From contig JALDRA010000001.1 in the NCBI GenBank assembly GCA_031316235.1, forward strand, positions 660,001-692,000: 32,000 bases of DNA, written 5' to 3'. The notes beneath the pieces are model-generated. The model searched no databases. It was not told where the DNA came from and saw only the letters and a list, made by a program, of their open reading frames with translations. Origin of the DNA: Candidatus Scalindua sp. (GTDB taxonomy: Bacteria; Planctomycetota; Brocadiia; Brocadiales; Scalinduaceae). Numbering within the stretch: the stretch's first letter is position 1; every line of letters begins with the position of its first letter. This document shows positions 2,253-31,694 of this stretch, piece by piece. Both the position numbers and the translations under genes were made by a program.

Positions 2253-4904
2253 ATGGTTAATTCAACGCCCATGATGAAACAGTATCTGAGTATTAAAAAA
2301 AAACACGAAGACGCATTGCTGTTTTTCCGCATGGGAGATTTCTATGAAATGTTCTTCGATGATGCCAGGATTGCGTCGAAGATTCTCGGGATCACGCTGA
2401 CCTCGCGATCTAAGGGGGAAAAGGCTATCCCGATGGCCGGAATTCCTCACCACGCTGCTGATTCTTATATCCAGAAGTTGATTCAAACCGGCTACAAGGT
2501 TGCCGTATGCGAACAGCTGCAGGAAAATGGAAGAAAATCTCCTTCAACGGGAGGGGGAGAAAAGGGCATAGTAGAGCGTGATGTTGTAAGGGTAATTACA
2601 CCCGGAACCCTTACGGAAGATGCAATGCTCAATGACACCGATAACAACTATCTTTTATCGATTTTTCTTCATGATGATATTGTTGGCTTGTCATGGGTTG
2701 ATATCTCTACCGGGAAATTCATGGTACAGGACATTCAGAGGGACCGCTTGATGGATGAGTTGACGAGGATAGGTCCGTCTGAGTGTATACTGCCAGAAAA
2801 TATTACCTTTAAAGAGTATGACATCTCAAAGAGGTTAACAGGAGACTTTAATACTATGGTGACCTATCGGGCGGATTGGGAATTTTCAAGAGATTCCGCC
2901 TATACGAAACTTCTCAATCATTTTTCCACTACATCACTCGAAGGGTTTGGATGTGAAGAGAACGGTCCTTCCATAAGTGCAGCAGGAGCCTTGATACACT
3001 ATCTGAACGAAACACAGAAGACATCTCTCAAACACATCAACAGGCTTGAAAAATTTTCCAGTAATAACAACTTGATCTTAGACTATTCAACACAACACAG
3101 CCTCGAGCTGGTTAAGACCTCAAGAACCCGGCAGAAAGAGGGTTCTTTATTAAGCGTTATGGATAAAACGAAGACTCCCATGGGAGGGAGATTGATCAAA
3201 AGCTGGCTGGTAAGTCCGTTGAGTATATCACAGGACATTAAATCGAGGCAGGATGGGGTAGCAGAGCTCTATGAAAACAGTAATCTCTGCAGGGATGTAA
3301 GAGATATATTAAAGGATATTTATGACCTGGAAAGAATTACCTCAAAGATCAGCTTTGGGAGAGCAAATGCGAGGGATCTTATCTCTCTCTTACTATCACT
3401 CTCTCTCTTACCAGAAATAAAGAAAATAATTTCTGCCTGCAATTCCCCTGTCCTCAAGTCACTTTACGAGACACTGGATGTATTAGAGGAGGTCAGGTCG
3501 CTTATCAGTAACACGATAAATCCGGAACCTCCCTTCTCTATTCGTGAAGGTGGAATGATACAGGATGGCTACAACCATGATCTGGATGAGTTACGTAATA
3601 TCAGCAGAAATGGAAAAGGCTGGATAGCAAACTTTCAGGCTGAGGAGATAGAGAGAACAGGCATAAACTCATTAAAGATTGGTTATAATCGGGTCTTTGG
3701 ATATTACCTTGAAATAACAAATGCCCACAGATGTAATATCCCCGAGACATATATACGGAAACAGACGCTCAAGAATGCGGAGAGATATATAACCCCGGAA
3801 CTCAAGGAATACGAAACGAAGGTGCTTACGGCTGATGAACGGGCAAAGGATCTTGAATATCGCATCTTCCAGGACACACGGGAGAGAATAAATACTTTTA
3901 CGGAGCGTATCCAGAAAATGGCCGATGTAATCGCCCACTTAGACTGCATTTTTACTTTAGCAAATATCGCTGTCGAAAATGGATATTCGCGACCCGTTAT
4001 TACGGATGAGTGCAAACTCACAATTATTGAAGGCAGACATCCAGTCCTTGAAAAGACATTAATTAACGAGAAGTTTATCCCGAATGACATTGATATTGAT
4101 GGAGAAGAGAATCAAATCATGGTCATTACGGGGCCGAACATGGCGGGAAAAAGTACCTATATTCGACAAGTAGCCCTGCTTGTCTTAATGACACAGATGG
4201 GGAGTTTCATTCCAGCGAAAGAAGCTACCATAGGGACTGTTGACAGAATTTTTACGCGAATTGGAGCAATGGATGAATTAGCAAAAGGTCAGAGTACCTT
4301 TATGGTTGAAATGAATGAGGCTGCCAACATCCTTAATAATGCAACAAGGCGGAGTTTGATAATACTGGATGAGGTTGGTCGGGGTACCAGCACATTTGAT
4401 GGAGTAAGTATCGCGTGGGCTTTAACCGAATATATTTATGAACATCTCAAATCAAGGACGCTCTTTGCCACACACTACCACGAACTTACAGAATTAGCCC
4501 TGCTTTTCCCCGGCATAAAAAACTATAACATTGCCGTGCGGGAATGGGAGGAAGAGATAATCTTTTTACGAAAGATAATTGAAGGCGGTGCAGATAAAAG
4601 CTACGGTATTCATGTCGCGAGATTGGCAGGAATGCCGAAAGAGGTAATTCAGAGAGCAAAGGTGATACTTGGCAATCTTGAGGCTGAAACACTTGACATA
4701 AACGGCAAACCAAAATTTGCAACCCTTGACAGGAGTAAAAAGAAAAGTAAGATGCAACCAATACAACTTCCGCTCTTTAATCCGTCTGAAAACCAGATAA
4801 TTGAAGAGTTAAAGAGCCTTGACATTTCAAAAACCACTCCTCTTGACGCTCTCAACACGCTTCACAAGTTAAAGGAAAGGTTAGAAAATGATGCCGGATA
4901 TTAG
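2253..4904 (+). CDS. mutS: DNA mismatch repair protein MutS
   Basis: The N-terminus TPMMKQYLSIKKKH..LLFFRMGDFYEMF, the Walker A motif GPNMAGKST, and STFMVEM and DEVGRGTST are all MutS motifs across an 883-aa product. Confidence 0.95.
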   Translation: MVNSTPMMKQYLSIKKKHEDALLFFRMGDFYEMFFDDARIASKILGITLTSRSKGEKAIPMAGIPHHAADSYIQKLIQTGYKVAVCEQLQENGRKSPSTGGGEKGIVERDVVRVITPGTLTEDAMLNDTDNNYLLSIFLHDDIVGLSWVDISTGKFMVQDIQRDRLMDELTRIGPSECILPENITFKEYDISKRLTGDFNTMVTYRADWEFSRDSAYTKLLNHFSTTSLEGFGCEENGPSISAAGALIHYLNETQKTSLKHINRLEKFSSNNNLILDYSTQHSLELVKTSRTRQKEGSLLSVMDKTKTPMGGRLIKSWLVSPLSISQDIKSRQDGVAELYENSNLCRDVRDILKDIYDLERITSKISFGRANARDLISLLLSLSLLPEIKKIISACNSPVLKSLYETLDVLEEVRSLISNTINPEPPFSIREGGMIQDGYNHDLDELRNISRNGKGWIANFQAEEIERTGINSLKIGYNRVFGYYLEITNAHRCNIPETYIRKQTLKNAERYITPELKEYETKVLTADERAKDLEYRIFQDTRERINTFTERIQKMADVIAHLDCIFTLANIAVENGYSRPVITDECKLTIIEGRHPVLEKTLINEKFIPNDIDIDGEENQIMVITGPNMAGKSTYIRQVALLVLMTQMGSFIPAKEATIGTVDRIFTRIGAMDELAKGQSTFMVEMNEAANILNNATRRSLIILDEVGRGTSTFDGVSIAWALTEYIYEHLKSRTLFATHYHELTELALLFPGIKNYNIAVREWEEEIIFLRKIIEGGADKSYGIHVARLAGMPKEVIQRAKVILGNLEAETLDINGKPKFATLDRSKKKSKMQPIQLPLFNPSENQIIEELKSLDISKTTPLDALNTLHKLKERLENDAGY

Positions 4905-4983: not shown

Positions 4984-5096
4984 TATACTCATCTCATAAT
5001 GGTTTTCGGATAAAATCCGAGATAAAATTGAGCGAGTATAACTGCAACCAGGATTTGGTTTCCGGTAAAACCGAAAACCAAATCGGTTTTAGTATA
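4984..5096 (+). repeat. Family-1 repeat, copy A+ (central segment deleted)
   Basis: TATACTCATCTCATAATGGTTTTCGGATAAAATCCGAGATAAAATTGAGCGAG is followed by ...AACCAGGATTTGGTTTCCGGTAAAACCGAAAACCAAATCGGTTTTAGTATA. Confidence 0.85.
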
Positions 5097-5407
5097 TATG
5101 ATAGCAATGCGGGAACCCGGGAGGAACAGGTCTCGGACACCCGATATAAGTGCTCGGTGAATGAGAGAAACCGCGCATGCAGAAAACTAACTGGACACTA
5201 CTGAACATTTATAGTATTTTTACCCGTTGTATAGTGATGTTCGGTTTTCAGAACCCGATATTACATGAATGTTACATTTAACGTAACCGTATGATCTGAA
5301 ATTCCATAAATCATTTTGCAAGAGGTAAATCTCTGTGATCAGGCTATGCAGCCGCCGGGTTTATCCGCAAACAGGAATTGAAGATACATTTCACTTTTGA
5401 AGGGTTA

Positions 5408-5492
5408 TATACTAAAACCAAATCCTGGTTAATGGTAGACCCGCTCCATTTTTACTCGAATTTTATCCGAAAACCATTATAAGACGAATATA
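5408..5492 (-). repeat. Family-1 repeat, copy A- (shortened), inverted relative to A+
   Basis: The reverse complement reads TATATTCGTCTTATAATGGTTTTCGGATAAAATTCGAG...ACCATTAACCAGGATTTGGTTTTAGTATA. It ends 4 nt before the pepF ATG. Confidence 0.85.
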
Positions 5493-5496
5493 ACAT

Positions 5497-9477: not shown

Positions 9478-9559
9478 TGTTTTGCACTAAGGTTTAAAAA
9501 TTAAAAATAAGGTAATATGCCTGGACAGATCGTACAGACATCAGAGCACCGATTCTCTT

Positions 9560-9702
9560 TATACTCGTCTTATAATGGTTTTCGGATAAACTCCGGGAAA
9601 AAACGGAGCGGGGAAAGTCCTCGGCGCCTGGTTTTGCCCGGGGATACCATTAACCAGGCTCTGGTTTTCAGAAAAATCTAAAACCATATCGGTTTCAGTA
9701 TA
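9560..9702 (+). repeat. Family-1 repeat, copy B+ (full length)
   Basis: It is collinear over 143 bp with copies C and D. Confidence 0.9.
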
Positions 9703-9799
9703 TCTTGTCTGAAATTACTATAATCACCGTGAGAAGTCAAGGCTTCAGTTATAACGGAGACAGTTTTCAGAATAAAGTATGATTCTGGAAAAAATCCTT

Positions 9800-9912
9800 T
9801 TTTACCGGAAACTAAATCCTGATGAAGGTATCCCCGGACAAAAAGCGCCGAGGACTTTCCCCGCTCAATTTTATCTCGGATTTTATCCGAAAACCATCAT
9901 GAGATGAGTATA
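9800..9912 (-). repeat. Family-1 repeat, copy B- (right arm truncated), inverted relative to B+
   Basis: The reverse complement reads TATACTCATCTCATGATGGTTTTCGGATAAAATCCGAGATAAAATTGAGCGGGGAAAGTCCTCGGCGCTTTTTGTCCGGGGATACCTTCATCAGGATTTAGTTTCCGGTAAAA. The inner boundary is approximate. Confidence 0.8.
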
Positions 9913-10087
9913 TTCAACCGTACCCTCGATACCGAAGGCCGGAAGTAAGAAAGCGTTTTCCATGATCTGACTTTTTGGGTAAATCCTGTTTTCCTCGTCA
10001 TACTAGCTGGTAGTAAAACGGAGAGGGGATGTTTTCTTGCATGAGACAATAGGAGATCTCTGGTATACCGTAAGCTTCATTCTGATC

Positions 10088-11464
10088 TCATGTTCCAACC
10101 ACTTTCAGTTGCCTCCATTTTCCACTTCGATATCTCAGGTAAAAGGTTGCTGCAATAAATGGTATCGTAAAAACAACTCCCATCCAGGTAATTTCTGGTG
10201 ATAAATGTAAAACGCGAATCATCACAACAGCTTCCGCTGCAAGCAGCCAATGAAAGGAAACTGATATGATCATGGCCCAGAATGTATCACCAGACCCGCG
10301 AAGGGCTCCGGAGTAAACAAGTGCAAATCCATCAGCAATCACATAAACAGCAATCATTCTGACCATGTACTCAGCCAATTCAGAAAAGTTTTCTGCCGAC
10401 TCAGGGTCTGAGAGAAATATAGACACCAGATGTCCTGGAAAAAGAACGAACAGCCCCAGCATTAAAACGGCATAGACACTGACCATTTTCAAACCGGATT
10501 TTGTCGTTCGATGTGCGTAGTCTGTCAAGCCAGCTCCCATATAACGACCTACCAGGGAGGTCACCCCGATATTCACCCCAATCAAGGGAATATATGACAC
10601 AAGATCCCAGTTAAAGGCAATGGTGACAGAGGCTGCCACTTCGAGACCATAGGAATGGAAAAGCAGAACAATCAGATCAAATGCCATCAAATTTAAAAAA
10701 AACTCCAATCCACCCGGGTAACCAAAGCGCAGCAGCTTTTTCATTATGAGCCAGTCAAAACGAAAGCTTTTTGAGATCTCAAAATTTCTGTGGCCTTTGT
10801 GATAAAATATATATCCTGCAATGACAACCATAAGTCCGCATGTACTGCCAATAATGGTTCCAATTGCTGCTCCCCTGATTCCCATAGCCGGGAAACCACC
10901 TTTACCCAGAATTAACAGGTAATTGACAACGACATTGATCGACATGGTAATGAGGGAAGAGATCATGACGATTCGGGTTTTTCCGATTCCACAGAAAAAT
11001 CCATTCAGGCTGTTTCTTACAATACCCAGGAAAGTACCGAACATTAGAATATCAAAATAGACTTGAGCGAGATCCTGCTGTACCGGACTATGACCAACAA
11101 TTTTAAATAACCCGTGCCCGATGGGGATACAGGCCAGCATGACAGGATAAGCCAATACTGAGATAATTACCGCCTGGAATACTACAACCGCACAGTTTTT
11201 CTCCTGGCCGGCACCGAAATATTGGGCTACCAAAGGGGTCACATATCCCGTTAACCCGATAAAAAACGTCATAAACATGAAAGCAGTCAAACCGCCGCTC
11301 ATCGAAGCTGCCATATGCGTGGGGCTTACCTGGGAAAGAAAAAGTCGATCGGTAAACAGCATGACGGTTTCACACGCTTGAGAAATCACCATGGGCATTG
11401 CGATGGCCAGAAGCTGCAAAATTCCACCCGGTCCGCTTACATATTTCTTCAAAGAACGATTCAT
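10088..11464 (-). CDS. MATE family efflux transporter
   Basis: It is a 458-aa, roughly 12-TM protein with a NorM/DinF-like N-terminus (LLAIAMPMVISQ...LFTDRLFLS). Confidence 0.85.
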   Translation of the reverse strand: MNRSLKKYVSGPGGILQLLAIAMPMVISQACETVMLFTDRLFLSQVSPTHMAASMSGGLTAFMFMTFFIGLTGYVTPLVAQYFGAGQEKNCAVVVFQAVIISVLAYPVMLACIPIGHGLFKIVGHSPVQQDLAQVYFDILMFGTFLGIVRNSLNGFFCGIGKTRIVMISSLITMSINVVVNYLLILGKGGFPAMGIRGAAIGTIIGSTCGLMVVIAGYIFYHKGHRNFEISKSFRFDWLIMKKLLRFGYPGGLEFFLNLMAFDLIVLLFHSYGLEVAASVTIAFNWDLVSYIPLIGVNIGVTSLVGRYMGAGLTDYAHRTTKSGLKMVSVYAVLMLGLFVLFPGHLVSIFLSDPESAENFSELAEYMVRMIAVYVIADGFALVYSGALRGSGDTFWAMIISVSFHWLLAAEAVVMIRVLHLSPEITWMGVVFTIPFIAATFYLRYRSGKWRQLKVVGT

Positions 11465-11509
11465 TGAAGATTCTCTTAAAAAAATTGTTGTTAAGATTAT
11501 TTGCTGTTG

Positions 11510-11773
11510 AGCAGTTGAACCAAAACCGCCGACATACCGGCCGCGCTGATTTTCTTAACCGGAACTTGCCCGTATATACTCATCTCATAATGGTTTTCGG
11601 ATAATATCCGAGATAAAATTGAGCGAGTAAGGTCCTCAGCGCTTATTGTCCGGGGATACCATTAACCAGGCTTTGGTTTTTAGAAAGATTTAAAACCAGA
11701 TCGGTTTCAGTATACTTGAAGGTTACGGAATTATTACCGCAATGCAGTAGATGGGTACTACTCGTTCAACCAC
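11510..11773. repeat. Family-X element, copy X3, split by the family-1 copy C insertion
   Basis: The left part is AGCAGTTGAACCAAAACCGCCGACATACCGG...AACCGGAACTTGCCCGTA and the right part is CTTGAAGGTTACGGAATTATTACCGCAATGCAGTAGATGGGTACTACTCGTTCAACCAC. Both align to contiguous X1 sequence. Confidence 0.75.
11575..11714 (+). mobile_element. Family-1 repeat, copy C (full length), inserted inside family-X copy X3
   Basis: It is a 140-bp copy. Its flanks (11510-11574 and 11715-11773) rejoin to give a complete family-X element, and TA dinucleotides sit on both junctions. Confidence 0.85.
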
Positions 11774-11833
11774 AATTTAATTGCCGCAGTGATGTGGATG
11801 TCAAAGTAAAGCAGACGTAATACTGGTTATCCT

Positions 11834-12598
11834 TCAATGGGTAACCGGGAGCTCTCTTTGCTCATCCTCAGGAGATCCTCTACTACCGCCTCTGGTCAGA
11901 GATCTGGTTGATAAGCCCTTCCCGGGTAAATGCAGTTGAAGTGAAAAACGCAGGTATTTGATCACACGATTGTCAGCAAGATACTTTTTCTCATAATCTG
12001 TTTTGATGTACAGATCCTCATGCCGTTTTTCATCAGCATACACATTGTCTATCTTTTCCTCAATAATACATCTGTTTTTGATTAATGATTTGAGACTGAA
12101 ATCGAAAAAGGGATTTGAATCTGTTTTAAGGTGGATTGGTGCTCCCTCCCTGATCACACTTTTATATAGAGCCAGATATCGATCAGCAGTGAGCCTTCTC
12201 TTAGATTTGCTTCTCTTCAAAAAAGGATCGGGAAACGTTATCCATATCTCCCCGACTTCCCCTTCCGCAAAATAGTGGGCAAGGCTCAAAATATCTATAC
12301 GAAGAAAAACAACATTCGTTAAACTGCGCTGTTGTGCTGCAACACATCCACACCACAGACGTGAACCTTTCACATCAATACCGATAAAATTTCTATCAGG
12401 ATATTTCTCCGCAAAAGCCAGGGTATATGAACCTTTCCCACACCCCAGATCTAAGGTTACAGGATTATGGTTCCCGAAGTAATCTTCTGCCCATGTTCCA
12501 TGAAATCGAAAACCCTTCTGTTCTGGATGTTCCGTACGTTGTATAATATTTTCAAAATGCGCAAGTTCACTGAACTTGCGCATTTTGTTACTTCCCAC
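11834..12598 (-). CDS. trmB: tRNA (guanine46-N7)-methyltransferase
   Basis: It carries the SAM-binding motif LDLGCGKG and the TrmB motif ITFPDPF.K....KRRL. A roughly 35-aa basic C-terminal tail lies beyond the usual domain. The start could be Met6 at 12583. Confidence 0.85.
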   Translation of the reverse strand: MGSNKMRKFSELAHFENIIQRTEHPEQKGFRFHGTWAEDYFGNHNPVTLDLGCGKGSYTLAFAEKYPDRNFIGIDVKGSRLWCGCVAAQQRSLTNVVFLRIDILSLAHYFAEGEVGEIWITFPDPFLKRSKSKRRLTADRYLALYKSVIREGAPIHLKTDSNPFFDFSLKSLIKNRCIIEEKIDNVYADEKRHEDLYIKTDYEKKYLADNRVIKYLRFSLQLHLPGKGLSTRSLTRGGSRGSPEDEQRELPVTH

Positions 12599-12766
12599 AG
12601 TACATTCCTATGTATTTCTCTACAAATGTAAAAACTCTCGCCACCGGTGCCGGTCAGCAAAAAAAAAAACGGTGCTCAATAGCTTTATGGAAACAATGTC
12701 ACGAGAGAAAGAGATACGGTTAAGTCAAAGAATATTAAAAAAAACAGATTGATACCTTACTAGTAA

Positions 12767-13210
12767 TCAGACCCTCTCAGCATCCATTATCTTGTCAACA
12801 CGCCGTGCGTGCCGGCCACCTTCAAAAGGGGTTTCTATCCAGAGCTTTATCTTCTTTTCCAATAACCCCTGATCGACTACGTCTGCACCAAGACACAACA
12901 CGTTTGCATCATTGTGCCTTCTGCTCATCTCTACCGTATGAAGATCGTGGCATGCGGTCGCACGTATCCCCTTCACCTTATTGGCTATCAGTGACATTCC
13001 CAACCCTGTCCCGCAGACCAGAATAGCTCGATCACTCTGTCCTTTGGATACTGACCTGGCAGCCTCAATTCCATAATCAGTATAGTCAACAGAGTCCGAT
13101 CCGTTCGAGGTTCCGCAGTCAACAATCTCATGACCCAGTCCTGCAATAAACACCCCGATTTTGTTTTTAAATTCAAATCCCCTATGATCTGAGGCTAAGG
13201 CTATCTTCAT
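12767..13210 (-). CDS. rpiB: Ribose-5-phosphate isomerase B
   Basis: MKIALASDHRGFEFK and ILVCGTGLGMSLIANK are RpiB/LacAB family motifs in a 147-aa product. Confidence 0.9.
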   Translation of the reverse strand: MKIALASDHRGFEFKNKIGVFIAGLGHEIVDCGTSNGSDSVDYTDYGIEAARSVSKGQSDRAILVCGTGLGMSLIANKVKGIRATACHDLHTVEMSRRHNDANVLCLGADVVDQGLLEKKIKLWIETPFEGGRHARRVDKIMDAERV

Positions 13211-13901
13211 GTATGCACCTGCTTATCCTTTCTTCCTGAATAATACCATGACGAATAATTTCAAACGTTTCTCTATACACCTTTACTACAGTTGATGGTT
13301 TTTTTAGTTGTGTTGGCCCGTCGTCAAGGACCAAATCGATCTTGTCACCAAGATAAGCTGCTACCTGTTGAGCATCAATGGCCGGTTGGCTCCCTGAAAT
13401 GTTTGCACTTGTAGAGGCAATGGGAACCCCTGCACACCTGATGATATCTCTTATCACCCGGTTATCCGGATTCCTGAACCCAATGGTTGTCATATCAGGG
13501 AGTAGCAGGACAATAGTAAGAGGGCCCGGCCAGAAGAGCTTCATCAGCTTTTCGGCAGCTGGTGGTAACTCTCTCACCCACTCCTTTACCGCTTCTGAAT
13601 CCGTAACCATGATAGCCATCTTTTTCTCTTCGGGCCTCTCTTTCACCCTGTATAAGTTTTCAATTGCATCTCTGTTATGTGCATTCACACCGAGACCATA
13701 GAGTGTCTCCGTAGGAAACGCCACAATCCTGCCTGCAAGCAAGGCCTGTACAGCCTTTTCTATATTTTCAGAATAGGAGTCTCGATCTTGTAGATCCAGG
13801 ATCTGTATACCCAAAGCATCATTACTCGACAAAATTTTCTTTCCCAAAAAAACAGTACCCTTAACTGCTGGTTGAACGAAAACTTCCCGGTTACAAGGCA
13901 T
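13182..13901 (-). CDS. tsaC: L-threonylcarbamoyladenylate synthase (YrdC/TsaC type)
   Basis: It has the YrdC domain motif PTETLYGLG and a later SANISG motif. It overlaps the rpiB start by 29 nt. The annotated ATG and first 12 codons lie inside repeat X2, so the real start may be an internal TTG. Confidence 0.75.
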   Translation of the reverse strand: MPCNREVFVQPAVKGTVFLGKKILSSNDALGIQILDLQDRDSYSENIEKAVQALLAGRIVAFPTETLYGLGVNAHNRDAIENLYRVKERPEEKKMAIMVTDSEAVKEWVRELPPAAEKLMKLFWPGPLTIVLLLPDMTTIGFRNPDNRVIRDIIRCAGVPIASTSANISGSQPAIDAQQVAAYLGDKIDLVLDDGPTQLKKPSTVVKVYRETFEIIRHGIIQEERISRCIHEDSLSLRS

Positions 13902-13990
13902 GCCGATTTCCCAACCCGAATGCAGTACCGTTGCTGAGGATTACGGAGTTGTTACAGCAGCACAGGAGAAAGTTATTTTCATTCAACCTT
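13867..13990. repeat. Family-X element, copy X2 (diverged)
   Basis: GCTGGTTGAACGAAAACTTCCCGGTTACAAGGC...CTGAGGATTACGGAGTTGTTACAGCAGC...AGTTATTTTCATTCAACC is collinear with X1. Confidence 0.7.
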
Positions 13991-14215
13991 CAACTATAGC
14001 ATTTGCAAAATACAATATCAATATTTAAGTACCCCCGAGTACCCGGTCAAACCCGGAAACACAACCGTTCCCGGGTTCACCGTTCCGGGTTATCATTCTT
14101 TATAACTCGGACTTCGCAATCCAATGATGATCCCTGAATCTTTGAACAGAAAACGGCTGAAATTTCATAGTTCATTTTGCAATTGAATAGACACCTTCTC
14201 ACACTCCTTTTCACC

Positions 14216-14244
14216 TTGACAAAAAATATGCAAGCTGTTAGAGT
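14216..14244 (+). promoter_or_regulatory. Putative sigma-70 promoter of the S55-peptidase/propeller operon (TTGACA-17-TAGAGT)
   Basis: It has a consensus -35, a 17-nt spacer and a TAnnnT -10, about 30 nt upstream of the ATG at 14274. Confidence 0.45.
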
Positions 14245-14273
14245 TAAATTCTCCACTAAACAATTGTAAAAAT

Positions 14274-16091
14274 ATGAGACAGAAAACCTCTCTTTTCCTT
14301 ATGTTCATCTGTTTTCTCTCCTTATCCCCGGTTGTTGCGGCAATGGGGATAATGGACGTAGACGAAATCTCTCCCGGTATGAAGGGATACGGGAAGACCG
14401 TTTTTTCCGGCAAAAAGATAGAGATTTTTGATGTAGAGATCCTGGGGGTTTTGAAAAATTGGGAAGCCAGAAGCGACATGATCCTCATCAGGATGTCGGG
14501 CGGCCCTTTGAACAGGACAGGAATTATATCAGGAATGAGCGGAAGCCCCGTGTTCATTGAGAACAGATTGATCGGTGCTGTCTCCCATGGCTGGAGCTTT
14601 GCAAAAGACCCTATCGCGGGAGTAACCCCCATAGGGGCAATGCTCGATGTCCTCAAAATAGAATCACAGATTGATGGTTCAACCCTTGTGAACAGTAACA
14701 ATGACTGGAGTGTACCAGCAGATACCCAGGACCCGGATACCGTCAACCGGTTGCTATCCCATGGACCGTTGTTCAAAAACAGACTGCCCGGAAAACCCTC
14801 CTCTCAAAGCCAATTTACCATAGACCTTGTTCCCATTCACACCCCATTGATGGTGTCGGGTTTTGACAGCAGGAGTTTGAGAAGCTCCAGCCGGCTCTTC
14901 AATGAATTCGGTTGGTTCCCCTTTCAGGTGAATCGGGAGGAGTCAAGTGATGCTGCAGACCTCCAGGGATTTACCCCTGGAGCCTCAGTCGCAGTTGAAA
15001 TAATCAGGGGGGATTTAAGTGCTTCTGTAATTGGAACTCTCACGTATCGGGAGGGGAATGACATTCTGGCATTTGGCCATCCTATCGTTCAGGTTGGCAC
15101 CACTGATCTGCCGATGTCTACAGCTCACGTTTATACGATACTGGCGTGCCAGTCCGGCTCGGTGAAGATGGCGGTTCCTGAAAAAATTATCGGCAGCATT
15201 CGACAGGACAGGAAGCCCGCAATTGCGGGGAAGATCGGCACATTCACCCGGATGATCCCCTGTCAGGCGGAGATCAGGGGCTCTTTAGATACCACCTACA
15301 ATTTTGAGATTGTCCATGACAGGCTTTTGACACCGAACCTTTTCCAGATGGCAGTGGAGAGCGCTCTGCTCGCTACCGAAAAATCTATCGGTGAGAAGCT
15401 GATGGACCTGAAGCTCGATATCGAAATAGCTGACAGACACAATCCCATAACGATTCAAAATATCTTTTTTGATCCGGGGCCTTTGTGGTTCCAGATACAC
15501 AATGTTATTCAGCCTATTGCCTCCCTTATGAGCAATGAATTTAAACCGGTTACCATCCAATCGATAAAGCTGTCAGCGACCATTCTGGAAACGGAAAACA
15601 CTGCCTCCATCGAAAACATACGGGTAAGCAATAAATGGGTTGTTCCCGGAGACGAAGTGCTCCTGCACGTGAGAGTAAAACCATATAAACAGGAGGATGT
15701 CACTCTTCCTGTAACCGTGAAAATCCCGGAGAATGTACGTCCGGGAAGTACAATAAAGATAACCGTGAGCGATGCCGGTTATAGTGAATTACTGGAGAAA
15801 GATTGTGCGCCGGGCCAACTGATACCGAAAAATTTTGAACAGTTGGTGCATTCCATTGAAAACGGAAAAAGCAACCAGAGTATAATGGTAAGAGTGCGGC
15901 TCAATAAAAAAGGATTAACCTATATGGGGGAAGACTTTCCCTCACTTCCCAACTCACTCCTTAATATCATGGCTCTATCCAACCAGAGCGGTGTAATGAG
16001 TTTACAGAGTGATATCGTGAAACAGATTGAGACTAAGTGGCTTGTTACGGGTAATGAATCCATCCATTTATTTGTAGAGAACGAGAGTTAA
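14274..16091 (+). CDS. Secreted peptidase S55 (SpoIVB-like serine protease) domain protein
   Basis: It has an N-terminal signal peptide (FLMFICFLSLSPVVAA) and the serine-protease motif GMSGSPV as in SpoIVB, followed by a long C-terminal region with no domain I recognise. A near-consensus promoter lies upstream. Confidence 0.5.
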   Translation: MRQKTSLFLMFICFLSLSPVVAAMGIMDVDEISPGMKGYGKTVFSGKKIEIFDVEILGVLKNWEARSDMILIRMSGGPLNRTGIISGMSGSPVFIENRLIGAVSHGWSFAKDPIAGVTPIGAMLDVLKIESQIDGSTLVNSNNDWSVPADTQDPDTVNRLLSHGPLFKNRLPGKPSSQSQFTIDLVPIHTPLMVSGFDSRSLRSSSRLFNEFGWFPFQVNREESSDAADLQGFTPGASVAVEIIRGDLSASVIGTLTYREGNDILAFGHPIVQVGTTDLPMSTAHVYTILACQSGSVKMAVPEKIIGSIRQDRKPAIAGKIGTFTRMIPCQAEIRGSLDTTYNFEIVHDRLLTPNLFQMAVESALLATEKSIGEKLMDLKLDIEIADRHNPITIQNIFFDPGPLWFQIHNVIQPIASLMSNEFKPVTIQSIKLSATILETENTASIENIRVSNKWVVPGDEVLLHVRVKPYKQEDVTLPVTVKIPENVRPGSTIKITVSDAGYSELLEKDCAPGQLIPKNFEQLVHSIENGKSNQSIMVRVRLNKKGLTYMGEDFPSLPNSLLNIMALSNQSGVMSLQSDIVKQIETKWLVTGNESIHLFVENES

Positions 16092-16093
16092 AA

Positions 16094-18280
16094 GTGTTAC
16101 ATCTCTTTAAAATCCACAACAAAATAGTGATCCATACCATATTCTTTGCGATCATGCTCCTCTTACTATCCATAACCTCAGGGAGAAACATACTTCATGC
16201 GGTCGGAACCAGGCAGTGGGTTGACACGGATAAATCAGATTTTGAAAAGGGGAGGTTGGAAAACGTTTCTATCCAGAGTTCCGGGAATCTCTCTTTATCA
16301 CCCGTGAGAAGCAAAGCAATGGAGATCCCGGCAGTCTATGTCTGGTGCCAGGCAAGTAATGGAACTGACTCATCATTTATCGGCACCGGAGATCCAGGCA
16401 CCATATTCATTACCACCCGATTCGGGAATATAATCGAATTCTATAAAACACCGGAGTCACACGTTCAAACGATCGCTATCGATACGTTCGGGAACGTATA
16501 TGCAGGTACTATGCCCCACGGAAGGATTTACAGGGTTACGCCTGATGGTAATGGAGAACTCTTTTGCGACCTGCCGGCTCCGTACGTCTGGGACTTAATC
16601 TTTGACGACAATGGTTGTTTATATGCTGCCACCGGAGATACCGGCATCATATATAAAATCTCCCGGGAGGGAATCCCGTCGGTTTTCTTCGATTCTCCTT
16701 CAACCAACATCCTTGATCTTGTTATCGGCAGGGACAATTCGGTTTATGCAGCCTGTGAACCGGAAGGTATTATCTATAAGATAACAGAGCGAAGCAAAGC
16801 ATCTGTACTCTATAACACAGAAGAGGATGAAATACATTGTCTTGCAATAGGAAAAGATGGTGTGCTGTACGCGGGGACTTCGTCCGGAACACCCCCAACC
16901 CTCCCCTCCCCCACACCGGTACAACCGGAACTGGTCCCATTCCCACCCCCTGTAACGGAATACCCCTTTGAGATCAACGCAAACTCATATGACCTGGCAA
17001 ATTCTTCTCTCAAATCGGCTGATGGAGAGACAGATCAGCCGTATGAGCAAACTATGGCCTCAGCACAAAACTGCATTTACAGGATTGATGAAGAAGGAAG
17101 GGTCAGAAAATTACTCACAATTGAAGACTCTTTTGTCCTCTGCCTTTCTGTGGACAGTAATAACGAGCTCCTGGTTGGTACGGGAAACAAGGCAAAGCTT
17201 CTCAAAATCGATACCCGGGGAGATGTCAGCCTTCTTTACAATTTCGATGAAACTCAAATCCTGGACATTGCTACCTATAGCGATGGAACCAGATCAATAG
17301 CTACGGGGAACAGCGCAAATGTTTACCTCCTCACCAATGAATATTCGAGCCGTGGTACCTATGAATCTGCCGTTCATGACTCCTCGTATGTGTCGGAGTG
17401 GGGAAGCATATCCTGGAACAGCCATACACCAGCACAAACAGATATGAGACTGTACACGAGATCGGGAAATAGCAGAAGACCCGACATCACCTGGAGCGAT
17501 TGGTCACCGGGTTATGGGAAAAGCGGCGAGAAAATCAACAGCCCGGCTGCACGCTTCATTCAATATCGGATACTCCTTACGACCCGCAATCCCAGAGCCA
17601 CTCCGGCCATTAACCATGTCACTATCCACTATTTACCCCAAAACCAGGCTCCATTCATTGAGAGTATAAGGGTAACCTCAGATGAGAAGGGAGAAGATGG
17701 TGAAGAAAACAATAAAGGTGATAAACGTCTATTCTCAAAACTGGTCACCTGGATATCAAGTGATCCTGATGGCGACATGCTCACTTTTGATCTCAAGTAC
17801 AAGATGACAGGTGAGACGGTATGGAAGGATTTGAAACGTGACATCAGCAATAAGGAACAGTATTGCTGGGACACAGAATCTCTGCAAGACGGGTATTACC
17901 AGGTAAAGATCATGGCAAGTGATATCCAAAACAACCCGGATACTTTCGCACTTACAGACGTGAAAAAAAGCGCCCTGTTTTTAATAGACAACACAGTGCC
18001 GGTCATATCCCAATTGACAAAGATCATCAAAAGTGACGAAGATACCATAATCATCACCGGAATGACAAGAGACGAGTTGTGTACGATACACGAGATTCGG
18101 TATTCTCTAGATGCCGGGGAATGGAAAATACTATTCCCGAAAGACAATATCTTCGACTCAAATGAGGAGACCTTCGAGCTTAAGATCCCCTACATGTCAT
18201 CAAAAGGACGCAGCGTAGTAATTGAATCAGTAGATGCAGAAGGAAATATCGGCAGCAGCACAAAACTGTACATTCCGTAG
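16094..18280 (+). CDS. Membrane-anchored or secreted beta-propeller repeat protein with C-terminal Ig/Fn3-like domains
   Basis: The GTG start lies 2 nt after the upstream stop, which implies translational coupling. It has an N-terminal TM segment and repeated G.(V/L)YA(G/A)T...G.IY(K/R)(I/V) blades. The C-terminus (SDPDGD..TF...Y...W..L...YCWDT..L.DG.Y) looks like Ig-like modules. Confidence 0.45.
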   Translation: MLHLFKIHNKIVIHTIFFAIMLLLLSITSGRNILHAVGTRQWVDTDKSDFEKGRLENVSIQSSGNLSLSPVRSKAMEIPAVYVWCQASNGTDSSFIGTGDPGTIFITTRFGNIIEFYKTPESHVQTIAIDTFGNVYAGTMPHGRIYRVTPDGNGELFCDLPAPYVWDLIFDDNGCLYAATGDTGIIYKISREGIPSVFFDSPSTNILDLVIGRDNSVYAACEPEGIIYKITERSKASVLYNTEEDEIHCLAIGKDGVLYAGTSSGTPPTLPSPTPVQPELVPFPPPVTEYPFEINANSYDLANSSLKSADGETDQPYEQTMASAQNCIYRIDEEGRVRKLLTIEDSFVLCLSVDSNNELLVGTGNKAKLLKIDTRGDVSLLYNFDETQILDIATYSDGTRSIATGNSANVYLLTNEYSSRGTYESAVHDSSYVSEWGSISWNSHTPAQTDMRLYTRSGNSRRPDITWSDWSPGYGKSGEKINSPAARFIQYRILLTTRNPRATPAINHVTIHYLPQNQAPFIESIRVTSDEKGEDGEENNKGDKRLFSKLVTWISSDPDGDMLTFDLKYKMTGETVWKDLKRDISNKEQYCWDTESLQDGYYQVKIMASDIQNNPDTFALTDVKKSALFLIDNTVPVISQLTKIIKSDEDTIIITGMTRDELCTIHEIRYSLDAGEWKILFPKDNIFDSNEETFELKIPYMSSKGRSVVIESVDAEGNIGSSTKLYIP

Positions 18281-18564
18281 AGTCACCGGGATATGCTGCT
18301 GCGTCCCCTGGTTCCCTGTTCCGTGTTGTGTTTGGGCACGAAGCAGCATATCCCCGCGATCTGTATGGTAACTTTCAATAAAGCCTTGTTTGTTTTTCGG
18401 TGTGATTACAAATCCGTATTTGATGTAGCACTCCGTAACCTGTCCAGTTCACTTTATCGATACAAAAAGGGTTCTTTCCCTTCCTGTAATTCCTGCATTC
18501 CTTAGCTAAAAAAGTTTTTCCAGGGAGTGCTTAAACGGAAGGGGGAATACACCCATGAAAACCC

Positions 18565-18692
18565 AGTGGTTGAACGAAAACTGCCCAGATACAAGGCGCG
18601 TAATAATTTTGTAACCGGAACGTACTGATGTACTTGAGGATTATGAAATTATTACAGCAACGCCGTAGGTGGGTAGTTTTCGTTCAACCACT
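18565..18692. mobile_element. Family-X MITE-like element, copy X1 (128 bp, with 18-bp perfect terminal inverted repeats)
   Basis: AGTGGTTGAACGAAAACT at 18565-18582 is the exact reverse complement of AGTTTTCGTTCAACCACT at 18675-18692. It has no coding capacity. Confidence 0.8.
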
Positions 18693-18698
18693 AAATAA

Positions 18699-19280
18699 TC
18701 AATTGAGTGAGCGAACGGGACGAACGTAGCGGTTTTTATAACGCCAGCGTACATTGCCAAGGCTGAAGTAGACGCTCCAAGCTTCACCCGAAACATGTTT
18801 ATCGCAAGACCAGATCCCCCACTGTTCACCATCAAATACTGGGTCTATGTAGAGGGCATTACTCTTGCTCGGTTCCAGAAGTGACACCGCTTCATCTAAG
18901 GTCGGCAATCTCCAGTCACTATGTCCCGCATACTTCATCTTATTTAAATTCTTTACCAATTCCGCTGCTTCATGCCACTTCATATAGTTGTCAGAACCGG
19001 ACCGGATCCACATCAAACCAGTGGCATGATCTACCACCACATCTATGCCATTTTCACTCCTCATCTCATAGCTGTGTTTGATTGTGCTGTGCCCATAAAA
19101 CCCCCACTCGTCCTTTTTACGAAGAGAAATGCTCGCCATTGCATAGACCTGGGAAACAGACAAATTCCTGCAATCTGAACGCAGTTTTATCACGGATGCG
19201 CCCTCTTCATCCGACTGTAAACTCTCAGCCGTAAGGAGGAGAGACGATAAGATTACGATAATGAGTAAGTATTTTCTCAT
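18699..19280 (-). CDS. Secreted DUF1566 (Lcl C-terminal-like) domain protein
   Basis: It has a signal peptide (YLLIIVILSSLLLTAES) and the DUF1566 hallmark DWRLPTLDEAVSLL. Confidence 0.6.
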   Translation of the reverse strand: MRKYLLIIVILSSLLLTAESLQSDEEGASVIKLRSDCRNLSVSQVYAMASISLRKKDEWGFYGHSTIKHSYEMRSENGIDVVVDHATGLMWIRSGSDNYMKWHEAAELVKNLNKMKYAGHSDWRLPTLDEAVSLLEPSKSNALYIDPVFDGEQWGIWSCDKHVSGEAWSVYFSLGNVRWRYKNRYVRPVRSLN

Positions 19281-19294
19281 AGTATCTTGAACTC

Positions 19295-19630
19295 CTAAAC
19301 CTCACCAATTCCATTCCCCCTTTGAAGGGGGACGGTTCTGCCTTCAGGCGGAACCCGGGGGATGTCCTTCGCAATTTCTTCTATTTTGTTTTTCAAAGCG
19401 CCCAACACACCAACCATGTTTTTTTTCACATCAACATCTTGAAAACGAATAAACGCAACTCCTAAATCCTGAAGCTTCGTCTGTCTGTTCATATCATAAT
19501 CATATGTTTCATTGTGGCCGCTTCCGTCGATTTCAATAGCCAACATCAATTCGTGGCAATAAAAATCTACGATAAACTCATCAACGGGTACCGCTTTCCC
19601 TATCCCACTCTCACTTTCTGTTATCTTCCT
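19295..19630 (-). pseudogene. N-terminally truncated DUF559 (Vsr-like endonuclease fold) remnant
   Basis: The in-frame translation VDEFIVDFYCHELMLAIEIDGSGH...D..R...L...G.AFIRF matches the DUF559 core. The N-terminal third is missing, there is no ATG, and an in-frame stop lies at 19631-19633. Confidence 0.5.
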
Positions 19631-19722
19631 TTATGTCTCTGTGCCTTTGTACGAATACTTATTTCTAAATTATAAACTTAAGAGAAGATGAGGCAAGTAT
19701 TTTCTTGAGGAAACAAGTCCCA

Positions 19723-19751
19723 TTGACATATTTGCATTTTACATTTATAGT
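19723..19751 (+). promoter_or_regulatory. Putative sigma-70 promoter of dinB (TTGACA-17-TATAGT)
   Basis: It has a consensus -35, a 17-nt spacer and a near-consensus -10, 43 nt upstream of the ATG at 19794. Confidence 0.45.
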
Positions 19752-19793
19752 AATTATTTCAAAAAATAGTTACACAAACACAGATACAAGAAA

Positions 19794-20954: not shown

Positions 20955-21387
20955 AGAGGCGGGCATTGAAATATCCTTTTATGTTCTCCTCGGTCTTGGA
21001 GGCAGGGATCATTGGCAGAGGCACATTCATAAAACAGCTCAACTTATCAATGAAACAGAACCCGAATATGTTCGCATCAGGCGGTTGTGGCTCTATGAAA
21101 GTGATCCCTGCTTTTCCAGTCCCGAAAGCCCGCTGTTAAAAGAGATCCGGAACGGCGCTTTTCAGCCTCAAACCCCTGAAGGCTGCGTTCGCGAACTGAA
21201 GATGCTGATTGAAAAGCTCAACAGGCTTTCCACATTTGTGGCCTGTGACCACGAAAATAATTATGTACATGTTTCAGGCATCTTGAAAGAGAGCAAAGAG
21301 CGTATGCTTGCCATTATTGATAACTTCCTTACCCTTCCGGAAACAAAAAGAGATGCCCATTATCTTGCAGTTGGTTCTCGAATATAA
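20923..21387 (+). pseudogene. 3' remnant of a radical-SAM family gene (C-terminal half only)
   Basis: The same frame as ORF 21085-21387 stays open back to 20923. It reads LKEAGIEISFYVLLGLGG...EPEYVRIRRLW...FVACDHENNY...MLAIIDNFL, which resembles the C-terminal half of radical-SAM proteins. There is no CxxxCxxC region and no plausible start. Confidence 0.45.
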
Positions 21388-21434: not shown

Positions 21435-21573
21435 TATACTAAAACCGATTTGGTTTTCGGTTTTACCGGCAACCAGATCCTGGTGAAGGTATCCCCGGAC
21501 AAAAAGCGCCGAGGACCTTACTCGCTCAATTTTTTCCCGGATTGTATCCGAAAACCATTATACGATGAGTATA
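21435..21573 (-). repeat. Family-1 repeat, copy D (full length)
   Basis: It is a 139-bp copy whose reverse complement is collinear with copies C and B+. Its right arm is the CCGGTAAAACCGAAAACCAAATCGGTTTTAGTATA subtype. Confidence 0.9.
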
Positions 21574-24435: not shown

Positions 24436-24530
24436 AGGGAGGACTCATTAATTTCAATAATACCTTGTTTACCCATTGCATATTCATGCAGGTTCCCTCA
24501 TACCGTATCTCATTTCTGCTGAGCCGTTGA

Positions 24531-24599
24531 GGGGTTCAGGGTTCAGGGTTCAGGGTTCAGAGTTCAGGGTTCAGGGTTCAAGGTTCGGAGTTCAGGGTT
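24531..24599. repeat. Heptanucleotide tandem repeat (GGGTTCA), about 9.7 units, 6 of them perfect
   Basis: This is a direct reading of the sequence. It lies between the Kef-type gene stop (24693) and the ceramidase-like gene start (24435). Confidence 0.95.
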
Positions 24600-24692
24600 A
24601 CATTATTCTGTTTACCCTGGTTTTAAGAATGCAGGTACCTCATGAAACCATCCCATGCCTTTCTGACAGTACCCGGTGGCTGTTGCGTGAAG

Positions 24693-26801: not shown

Positions 26802-27725
26802 TTACTTTGAAAGATCTCCATGGTCATTGAAACTCTCAGACAGTTTCAAGAAATTTGATTCTAAATCAACAAGGGATGGGCCGTTTGTCCTTTCATTAAA
26901 AAAGTTTTCCACTTTCGACAACTCCCCTAGTTCAATAGCTACCCGCAATGACTTAAAACGCGCAACCATCATTGATCGTTCACGGTTGGAATCATTTATC
27001 AATCGATTACAGATCTGCTCTGACAGAAAGGAAAAATTCCTCAGCGATTCAGCACCCTTCAGTCTACTCTTTATAGTCTTTTCATTCTGGATTTCCTCGA
27101 TCAATCTCAACCATTTCTCTTGAAGCCTTACACGCTCTTTGATAGGTAATTCCGACGCAACCGACGTTGGGTCAAAATTGATTTCGGTCCAATCATGATA
27201 CTCTTCAGGCAGTTTCTGTGTTAATCGTTTCTGCACAAACTCTACAGTTTCTCTGCATTCATCCATGACAGTGTCGACAACTCTCTTTTGAATTTTCTGC
27301 TCCTCTTCAAGACGCACAATGTCTCCAATCTGTAACCTGTTATCACCTGCTGACTCTTCCCTGATCTTTGTTGCACGACTAACCACCTCATCAAGGATAT
27401 GCAGGGCCTCATTCTCCCTCTTATGAACCATTTTAAGTAACCCTTCCAGCCGGGACAGCTTGCGTCTGGCCACAAAACTTTTAAAATTCAATTTTGTCAG
27501 GATAGAATCGAACCAGTTTGGTTCGGCTTCAGAAATCATATTTCTGTAGATAGCCAGATACTTATTGGGAAGATGCAGAAGTGAATTAAGGTTTTCCTTT
27601 TTTCGCAGTATTGTTACAATGGTGTCGTCCTGTCCTGGTAACATGATATATTCCTTCCGGGCAAAATCGATCTGTATATATTCATCTAATAATGATTTTC
27701 GGACAGAATCCGAGAAAAAAACCAA
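26802..27725 (-). CDS. Hypothetical all-helical, charged protein of unknown function
   Basis: It is a long ORF with no competing frame, and I recognise no motif. Codons 1-16 lie inside repeat copy E. An alternative start is Met28 at 27644, giving 280 aa. Confidence 0.5.
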   Translation of the reverse strand: MVFFSDSVRKSLLDEYIQIDFARKEYIMLPGQDDTIVTILRKKENLNSLLHLPNKYLAIYRNMISEAEPNWFDSILTKLNFKSFVARRKLSRLEGLLKMVHKRENEALHILDEVVSRATKIREESAGDNRLQIGDIVRLEEEQKIQKRVVDTVMDECRETVEFVQKRLTQKLPEEYHDWTEINFDPTSVASELPIKERVRLQEKWLRLIEEIQNEKTIKSRLKGAESLRNFSFLSEQICNRLINDSNRERSMMVARFKSLRVAIELGELSKVENFFNERTNGPSLVDLESNFLKLSESFNDHGDLSK

Positions 27726-27773
27726 ACGAATCTAACCGCAGCCAGGCTTTGGTTTTTGTATACTGAAACCGGC
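27677..27773 (+). repeat. Family-1 repeat, copy E (degenerate), followed by a 15-bp inverted right-end fragment
   Basis: It reads TATATTCATCTAATAATGATTTTCGGACAGAATCCGAGAAAAAAA...GCCAGGCTTTGGTTTTT, then GTATACTGAAACCGG. It overlaps the annotated 5' end of ORF 26802-27725. Confidence 0.65.
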
Positions 27774-28069
27774 TGCTTTCAATGCCGGTATGTAATACTC
27801 AATCATCTGTTTCTGACATGTTCAGGATAGAAGAATAACTATCAAAATTCAAGGTTTTTTCTCTCGTGACCTCTTCAAAAATAACCTTGTCTGAAAAACA
27901 GATAAAAAATGGAGAAATGTTACACGCGGTCACCAGGAATGGAAGCTACAGATACGCAGGAGTTATTTGAGGGCAGGGAGATAATCGACACCCCCCTCCT
28001 TGAGATTCGCAGACAAAGGGAATACAACCCTGTGTTCAGGCATTTATAACCGTTACAGAATGTTTTTTG

Positions 28070-28107
28070 GAATTTCAGGGCATGAGTCTGCCTGAAATTC
28101 TGTTTTT
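28070..28107 (+). terminator. Intrinsic-terminator-like hairpin on the plus strand, with no annotated plus-strand gene upstream
   Basis: A 10-bp stem pairs GAATTTCAGG (28070-28079) with CCTGAAATTC (28091-28100). The loop is 11 nt and the hairpin is followed by TGTTTTT. Confidence 0.35.
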
Positions 28108-28304
28108 CCGATTGAAGAAGATCGGAGGATGGAAAGACTGCGTACGAAAGAAAAAACAGGGATCTTAAAAGGGTGCAATATTGATAACTCATTCAGAAAC
28201 TGGATACATTTCTGGTTGAATCACGAAGCCCGCAGCTCATTCCAATGACCCGGCAGGAACTGAATTTTCACTTTTTTTCCGCTTTGATTACTCTGCTTCC
28301 CGGA

Positions 28305-31362: not shown

Positions 31363-31694
31363 GTTAAATCAATCCCCCTTTAGGTCTCCCCTGCCATTTA
31401 TCCAGTGTTCCAGCGTGAACCCTTTTTCGGAACCGACACTGCCGGGATACAGGGTGCACTGGTTTCGTAACCGGAATGAACATATTTACTTTATAGTTAA
31501 GTGGTTACTGCTGCTCAGCAGATGATTAGTTTTCATTCACCTGCTATCAGTCTGGAGGAATAACCGTTGCCACTTAGCATGAAAAAAAGATAACCCGGTT
31601 ACTATGGTACGCAGATAAACCAACTACCTGGTTAGCCCGCCGCCAAGGTACGGCACCATCCAGGTAGTGGACTCTTCAATGTTATATGATCATC

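Follow-up and report, generated by a model that had tools for sequence, protein, structure and literature searches.

A TA-flanked miniature transposon nested within a long-hairpin repeat of Candidatus Scalindua

Several bacterial MITEs duplicate the dinucleotide TA on insertion, among them Nezha of cyanobacteria, which is derived from IS630/Tc1-mariner, and the Correia (NEMIS) elements of Neisseria. Others are long hairpins, such as the ERIC/IRU elements of enterobacteria, imperfect palindromes of 127 nt. Nested MITEs are common in repeat-rich genomes, and nested insertion is standard evidence of transposition. The three repeat families described here (F1, its sister family F2, and X), from the marine anammox bacterium Candidatus Scalindua, belong to this well-known kind, with a TA-duplicating element nested in a long-hairpin one. 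F1 resembles Nezha and Correia in being small and non-coding, with many intergenic copies and terminal inverted repeats, and also in its 2-bp TA duplication, its length variants and its nested insertions. It differs from both in the weakness of its terminal repeat (~16 of 24 positions) and in the optional GC-rich hairpin modules carried in its loops, and the likeness is one of form. X recalls ERIC/IRU and other long-hairpin MITEs: it is an intergenic, multi-copy imperfect palindrome of 126-129 nt with a defined orientation, a hairpin kept by compensatory changes, and length variants. This comparison, too, concerns form only. Unlike ERIC/IRU, X is flanked by 6-nt TAWWTA direct repeats instead of TA, and in a genome scan it was limited to Candidatus Scalindua/Scalinduaceae genomes. 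A full-text literature search on MITEs and transposable elements of anammox bacteria, Scalindua included, found no description of such elements.

The nested pair lies in a stretch of 32,000 nt (hereafter the window, meaning the whole of the DNA analyzed), in a 369-nt spacer that runs from the start of a MatE-family gene to the stop of a trmB-like methyltransferase gene and holds a 140-nt segment with its two flanks. The features of the locus are the following.

10088-11464, minus strand: MatE-family gene
11511-11574, plus strand: left arm of the X copy X2, the host element, including the host's own TA at 11573-74 (nhmmer, X profile 2-69, E=2.4e-14; collinear with X1)
11575-11576, no strand: left copy of the duplicated target TA (F1 copies are flanked TA/TACTC...AGTA/TA; one-TA reconstruction best in 3/3)
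11577-11712, plus strand: F1 MITE core, 136 nt, TACTCATCTCATAATGGTTTTCGG...CAGATCGGTTTCAGTA, with imperfect terminal repeats of TACT plus TGGTTTT, equally spaced from the two tips (nhmmer E=1.1e-45; 18-copy alignment; terminal motif scan)
11713-11714, no strand: right copy of the duplicated TA (sequence at the junction, F1 flank pattern, one-TA reconstruction)
11715-11773, plus strand: right arm of X2 (nhmmer to the X profile end, position 131, E=9.6e-18; 80-82% identity to X1 18631-18699)
11834-12598, minus strand: trmB-like methyltransferase gene

Three further X copies are present in the window.

18565-18692, plus strand: X1, uninterrupted young copy and empty-site reference (95% identity to the X consensus; long hairpin)
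13868-13990, plus strand: X3, uninterrupted old copy (72% identity to the consensus)
31425-31548, plus strand: X4, degenerate copy (66% identity to the consensus)

A sequence-only reading of this DNA had proposed that an F1 copy sits inside an X element, and the profile searches agree: 11575-11714 is F1, and its flanks are the halves of one X. The 140-nt segment is 84-98% identical, over 55-143 aligned bases, to the other F1 copies compared in the window (9560-9702, 21435-21573, 9800-9912 and 4984-5096; blastn E 1e-23 to 4e-40). When the block is masked, the X2 flanks align collinearly with X1 (18562-18695) with a local score of 95, as the earlier reading had expected; with the block unmasked the score is 68 and the right half alone aligns. 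When a profile built from 54 X copies is run against the locus as it stands, two half-matches abut (model 31-88 and 76-166); once the flanks are rejoined, there is a single match (model 31-165, E=1.6e-29). In model coordinates the halves come together at a single point, and no X sequence is lost. At the homologous point X1 reads GATG-TA-CTTG, so that the TA reported there is real, and it recurs in 48 of the 54 uninterrupted X copies. The filled junction itself, CCCG-TA-TA-[TACTC...CAGTA]-TA-CTTG, is also found in two independent read sets, as Logan contigs L001 (SRR28338162) and L002 (SRR28338161), which are identical to the window over 9883/9884-11601 and whose ends both fall within F1 copies. 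Looked up by exact protein, MatE was found on two Logan contigs of 1.7 kb and nowhere else, both of them carrying this filled junction; no record was returned for the trmB-like protein, P0123 or P0124. F1 nested in X2, one miniature transposon within another, is a clear but ordinary case, and the nesting does not imply a function for the host cell.

If the 140-nt block were an ancestral or optional module of X, X2 would simply be a long variant; recombination or chance could also have set X halves beside an F1 copy. Optional modules do exist in these repeats, since F1 carries optional hairpin modules of 30-85 nt and X has long (145 nt) and short (126 nt) forms. However, the block is found in none of the 54 full-length uninterrupted X copies, a set drawn from the window and three further Scalindua genomes (core length 114-132 nt, mode 129), and it is therefore not ancestral to X; this is the comparison with further X copies that the earlier reading had called for. 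Moreover, there are numerous F1 copies outside X that share these ends and their flanking TAs, the nested cases interrupt X at varying points, and the X2 halves join at a single model point with the X sequence complete. We give these explanations almost no credence, and regard the block as an F1 insertion into X2.

Nesting recurs in other Scalindua genomes. A one-genome-per-species scan with the X terminus TGGTTGAACGAAAACTNCCC yielded 46 loci, ~40 of them from three Candidatus Scalindua/Scalinduaceae MAGs, the rest being single chance-level matches in unrelated taxa; the collection scanned does not include the chromosome of the window. F1 or F2 interrupts X in seven cases, with break points that differ between cases. 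Besides the window, they are as follows.

L020, 515-656: F1, both X halves found, insertion at the TA of CCAGA-TA-CAAGG
L033, 544-674: F1, both X halves found, TA in the other X arm
L032, 4994-5149: F1/F2 hybrid, interrupts X, one X half found
L015, 1038-1217: F2, both X halves found, TA at the right junction
L019, 2117-2296: F2, interrupts X, one X half found
L058, 2415-2579: a different F1 in an X remnant, in the opposite orientation

These insertions at other TAs uphold the earlier claim that F1 has transposed. No X copy was seen inside an F1 or F2 copy in the sample. Three of the seven nested insertions fall at the same one of ~12 X TAs, which we considered as a possible hot spot and rejected (rough P ~0.17, not significant; L015 and L019 are perhaps not independent).

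All F1 copies read TA/TACTC...(C/T)AGTA/TA, with TA flanks on nearly all of them, and beyond the TA the sequences are unrelated. For the three F1-in-X cases with the window's X2, L020 and L033 as hosts, we rebuilt the empty site in five versions that retained no base, T, TA, TAT or TATA, and used the X profile to score them. Exactly one TA gave the top score in all three.

X2 of the window: one TA, 92.9 bits; no TA, 90.3; TATA, 89.8
L020: one TA, 129.9 bits; no TA, 122.7; TATA, 123.6
L033: one TA, 71.3 bits; no TA, 64.0; TATA, 64.6

The margin for X2 alone is small (2.6 bits). Since one TA restores X best, the mobile unit is the 136-nt core at 11577-11712 plus a 2-bp TA duplication. The site before insertion would have read ...CCCGTATACTTG..., that is, ...AACTTGCCCGTA-TA-CTTGAAGG... 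(also given as ...AACTTGCCCGTATACTTGAAGG...), with 11 nt between AACCGGAAC and CTTGA, as in X1. Excision of 140 nt, as the sequence-only reading had it, shows the same nesting; the boundaries need revision, to a 136-nt core with a duplicated TA and an empty site two bases longer. A search of metagenome contigs for the exact empty allele of the X2 site (pattern AACCGGAACTTGCCCG N0-8 CTTGAAGGTTACGGAA) gave 0 matches, and the duplication is accordingly deduced from filled and empty sites in paralogous, not orthologous, X copies. The insertion site in X2 is a GTAC/GTAC helix at the tip of the hairpin, whose arms are parted by 138 nt as a result. The composite of X2 and F1 stops 46 nt short of the MatE start codon, on its upstream side.

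As a whole, these data are very probably explained as follows. F1 (11577-11712), a non-autonomous MITE, moved by cut-and-paste into a TA and duplicated it. The target TA belonged to the short GTAC/GTAC helix that caps X2, an older MITE-like palindrome of ~126 nt, which occupies the spacer separating the trmB-like and MatE genes of the Candidatus Scalindua chromosome. F1 and F2 would both be mobilized in trans by one DDE transposase binding their shared ~26-nt terminal inverted repeat, which, given the TA duplication, is most likely of the IS630/Tc1-mariner type. Support for this mode of insertion is good; which transposase acts is an inference.

F1 elements are 113-230 nt long, non-coding and too short for a protein, and thus have the size and copy number of a small multi-copy MITE: there are ~40 matches in ~430 kb of Scalindua DNA, eight of them in the window, in both orientations. 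Besides the copy in X2, the window holds the following.

9560-9702, plus strand: F1 copy, full length, 143 nt
9800-9912, minus strand: F1 copy, right end truncated
21435-21573, minus strand: F1 copy, full length, 139 nt
4984-5096, plus strand: F1 copy, short 113-nt form without the central module
5414-5494, minus strand: F1 copy, truncated, ending 2 nt before the start codon of an M3 peptidase gene
1966-2009 and 27677-27759: F1 fragments
5221-5278, minus strand, and 28046-28129, plus strand: F2 copies

Further F2 copies are found in L006, L011, L013, L015, L019 and L046. The family is modular. The 113-nt form lacks a central module of ~28 nt, longer forms (160 to ~230 nt) have the loop of the right hairpin enlarged by self-complementary, GC-rich modules of 30-85 nt, and some copies have a 39-nt module in the left hairpin. 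The long modular copies are these.

L017, 1543-1721 and 6242-6449
L023, 4428-4650
L037, 3266-3487
L035, 2073-2263
L038, 5536-5703

Two subterminal hairpins frame the element: TCGGAT..ATCCGA, which begins ~20 nt inside the left tip, and one of ~15 bp that ends 10 nt short of the right tip. Both show compensatory changes among copies (TCGGA/TCCGA to TCTGA/TCAGA; CCGGT/ACCG to CAGA/TCT).

This architecture is shared with palindrome-associated elements derived from IS200/IS605, which would move as single-stranded DNA through a Y1 HUH transposase and insert 3' of a short target without duplicating it, so that one of the flanking TAs would belong to the element. The compensated hairpins speak for such an origin, as does their geometry, which we take to resemble that of IS608, and the reconstruction with one TA cannot separate a 2-bp duplication from a 138-nt element with a single TA. 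Against it, the F1 tips match best when inverted: the left tip, like the right tip read as its reverse complement, has TACT and, after 10 unrelated bases, TGGTTTTCGG, at identical spacing. F2 (182 nt, TA flanks) has a plain 26-nt terminal inverted repeat, TATACCCATCACAAATTGGTTTTCGG, and the two families have in common a terminal inverted repeat of ~26 nt, TA/TAC[CT]CAT...TGGTTTTCGG, whose core TAC.CAT...TGGTTTTCGG F2 shares with the left end of F1. The F1 target, moreover, is TA only, 2 nt and symmetrical on both sides, whereas known IS200/IS605 targets have 4-5 nt; the base before it varies (T in 9, A in 7 and C in 2 of 18 copies); copies occur in both orientations; and no Y1 transposase or TnpB gene was seen near F1 copies. 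We consider an IS200/IS605-type origin distinctly improbable. The inverted tips of F1, together with the plain F2 repeat, argue instead for a DDE transposon with terminal inverted repeats. Combined with the TA duplication, such repeats point by established knowledge to the IS630/Tc1-mariner superfamily, of which TA duplication is typical, though not exclusive, as some IS5-group elements also produce it.

We searched for the autonomous partner that such a MITE would depend on. In contrast to the IS630-derived MITEs, no cognate autonomous IS630 with F1-matching ends, and no autonomous element with ends matching F1 or F2, was found in ~430 kb of Scalindua DNA. Likewise, neither a terminal-motif scan nor a search of all loci for inverted-repeat pairs spaced by 0.7-3.5 kb turned up an autonomous partner, and the terminal-repeat pattern had 0 matches in viral contigs. 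A candidate pair in L006 was discarded, being actually two F2 copies around a gene that its open reading frame suggests to be glycosyltransferase-like. A scan for the motif YSPxLNPxE detected one internally deleted IS630-like DDE_3 (PF13358) remnant, at L021 5787-6223 (Scalindua sp. RBC_AMX3), the sole member of the superfamily in the ~430 kb sampled; homologues with PF13358 are named as Scalindua transposases. In translation, a helix-turn-helix-like N-terminal part of the remnant is joined to a C-terminal ...LPSYSPELNPDE part. A 128-aa database protein, P0121, is 66% identical over 99% of this joined sequence, which suggests that the deleted form may itself be a repeated unit. The region upstream of the remnant has marginal similarity to the F1 left end, with 5 of 500 shuffles scoring as well, uncorrected for eight comparisons. 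Another homologue of the remnant, P0128 (locus L059), was set aside as unrelated to the F1, F2 or X repeats.

The host family X is itself MITE-like, with terminal inverted repeats, flanking direct repeats and presence/absence variation between related genomes. In copies from L003-L048 and the window it is a 126-nt imperfect palindrome with a perfect 17-bp terminal inverted repeat (GTGGTTGAACGAAAACT/AGTTTTCGTTCAACCAC), and it also exists in a 145-nt form with a duplicated left terminus. Among 49 copies, the flanking 6-nt TAWWTA repeats agree fully in 14 and at all but a single base in another eight; asymmetric cases such as TAACTA/TAACTA indicate that they are direct and not inverted. As single-stranded DNA, X1 is predicted to fold at -37.4 kcal/mol (z=-9.4). 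In the 54-copy alignment, 88.9% of hairpin cells are paired, and 79 cells show double changes, compared with 27±4 in shuffles (0 of 500 reach 79) and 21-44 in slid controls. Interior pairs also covary: columns 42/92 are UA in 28 copies, CG in 10 and AU in 6, with matched changes in some single copies. This signal is in part inherited subfamily structure. All four window copies lie on the plus strand; we rejected a strand bias, as other loci show mixed orientations.

Covariation beyond both controls, together with a conserved G·U pair in the X hairpin, would be expected if F1 and X were structured RNA genes or regulatory RNA motifs, adjacent for functional reasons, and not mobile DNA. But Rfam gave 0 matches at the gathering score in the whole window and 0 at E<=1 in 9500-18800, and the predicted fold of F1 copy E hardly exceeds that of shuffled sequence in stability (z=-1.8). 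A tRNA scan also found nothing. X has its 6-nt flanking direct repeats and F1 its TA flanks, both families vary in presence between sister genomes, and their orientation relative to neighboring genes is inconsistent. An RNA identity thus seems very improbable to us, and we treat both as mobile DNA. A further interpretation would see more than two ordinary MITEs in these data: the X hairpin, interior pairs included, would be maintained, either by selection on RNA or ssDNA structure or by fold-back copying; an enzyme would move X, making 6-bp TAWWTA duplications; and F1 and F2 would prefer hairpin-exposed TAs, the whole forming an undescribed, layered repeat system specific to Scalindua. We hold this to be unlikely.

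The relative age of host and guest can be judged from divergence and from synteny. X2 is 77% identical to the X consensus, as compared with a median of 90.5% for X copies in other genomes, and the F1 copies of the window are 82-88% identical to each other. In the syntenic locus of a sister species (L058, BQMX01000096; gene order Sua5-rpiB-trmB-MatE), the trmB-MatE spacer holds an X remnant that matches X2 in position and orientation, with the X centre missing and with its own F1, at a TA ~20 nt from the window's site. It follows that X was probably already present here before the lineages separated, and that F1 entered it twice, independently. By these measures of divergence, the X2 host copy is older than its F1 guest, as nesting demands. 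The nesting asymmetry, seven to none, fits F1 and F2 acting on pre-existing X copies.

The earlier reading had concluded that F1 was active after X spread. This stands for X2, which is old and predates the L058 split, in agreement with the nesting counts, but is too broad for the family. X1 is young (95%) and, like X3, absent from the orthologous L057 spacers, so X was probably active until recently, overlapping F1. L058 has an extra X between rpiB and trmB. For X1, X3 and this extra copy, base-exact empty sites were sought in the L057 and L058 spacers and none was readable, the intergenic DNA being too diverged for more than presence/absence. The MatE protein of the window is 84-86% identical to that of two other Scalindua assemblies; its relatives in metagenome contigs are distant only (46-61% identity), none of them with X or F1.

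The nesting shows at the base level that a small repeat family of Candidatus Scalindua moves, or moved until recently; it also establishes TA as the target and where the element begins and ends. F1, F2 and X occupy many intergenic spacers and break short-read assemblies, as seen in the Logan contigs that end within F1. They also flag places where sister genomes differ by the loss of genes (window 9545-10063), and could be used as strain markers.

Between MatE and a TrkA-type channel gene, this ~520-nt segment (9545-10063) contains two inverted F1 copies (9560-9702, plus; 9800-9912, minus, truncated), where L057 (11400-17178) and L058 (4004-7518) have a block of 3.5-5.8 kb with genes for LPG_synthase_TM and Dak1/Dak2 and, in L057 only, a PAS histidine kinase. 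The appearance is that of a deletion or rearrangement whose junction is occupied by F1 copies. Window 20938-21392 matches just the last 455 nt of the L057 radical-SAM gene; relative to L057, ~775 nt are missing (the 5' part of the gene and the adjoining spacer), a 100-aa ORF is left (21085-21387), and the F1 copy at 21435-21573 is immediately downstream of the shortened gene. The copy at 5414-5494 ends 2 nt before the ATG (5497) of an M3 oligopeptidase, whose ribosome-binding region would consequently fall inside the element.

Other repeats were also seen. At 24518-24606 there is an intergenic tandem array of ~12 GGGTTCA heptamers, with a related CCGTTCCCGGGTTCACCGTTCCGGGTT motif at 14066-14098. 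The spacer from an Lcl_C-domain gene to dinB (19281-19793) measures 513 nt, versus ~120 nt in L057, and its extra DNA contains an 84-aa ORF (19295-19549, minus strand) adjoining a GC-rich palindrome, CCCCCTTTGAAGGGGG. In L038, 113-nt inverted repeats that are 94% identical (1488-1600 and 3712-3824) surround ~2.1 kb with several short repeated motifs (TTAGCCTCACGATT...), a unit that is possibly a further mobile element with no relation to F1 or X.
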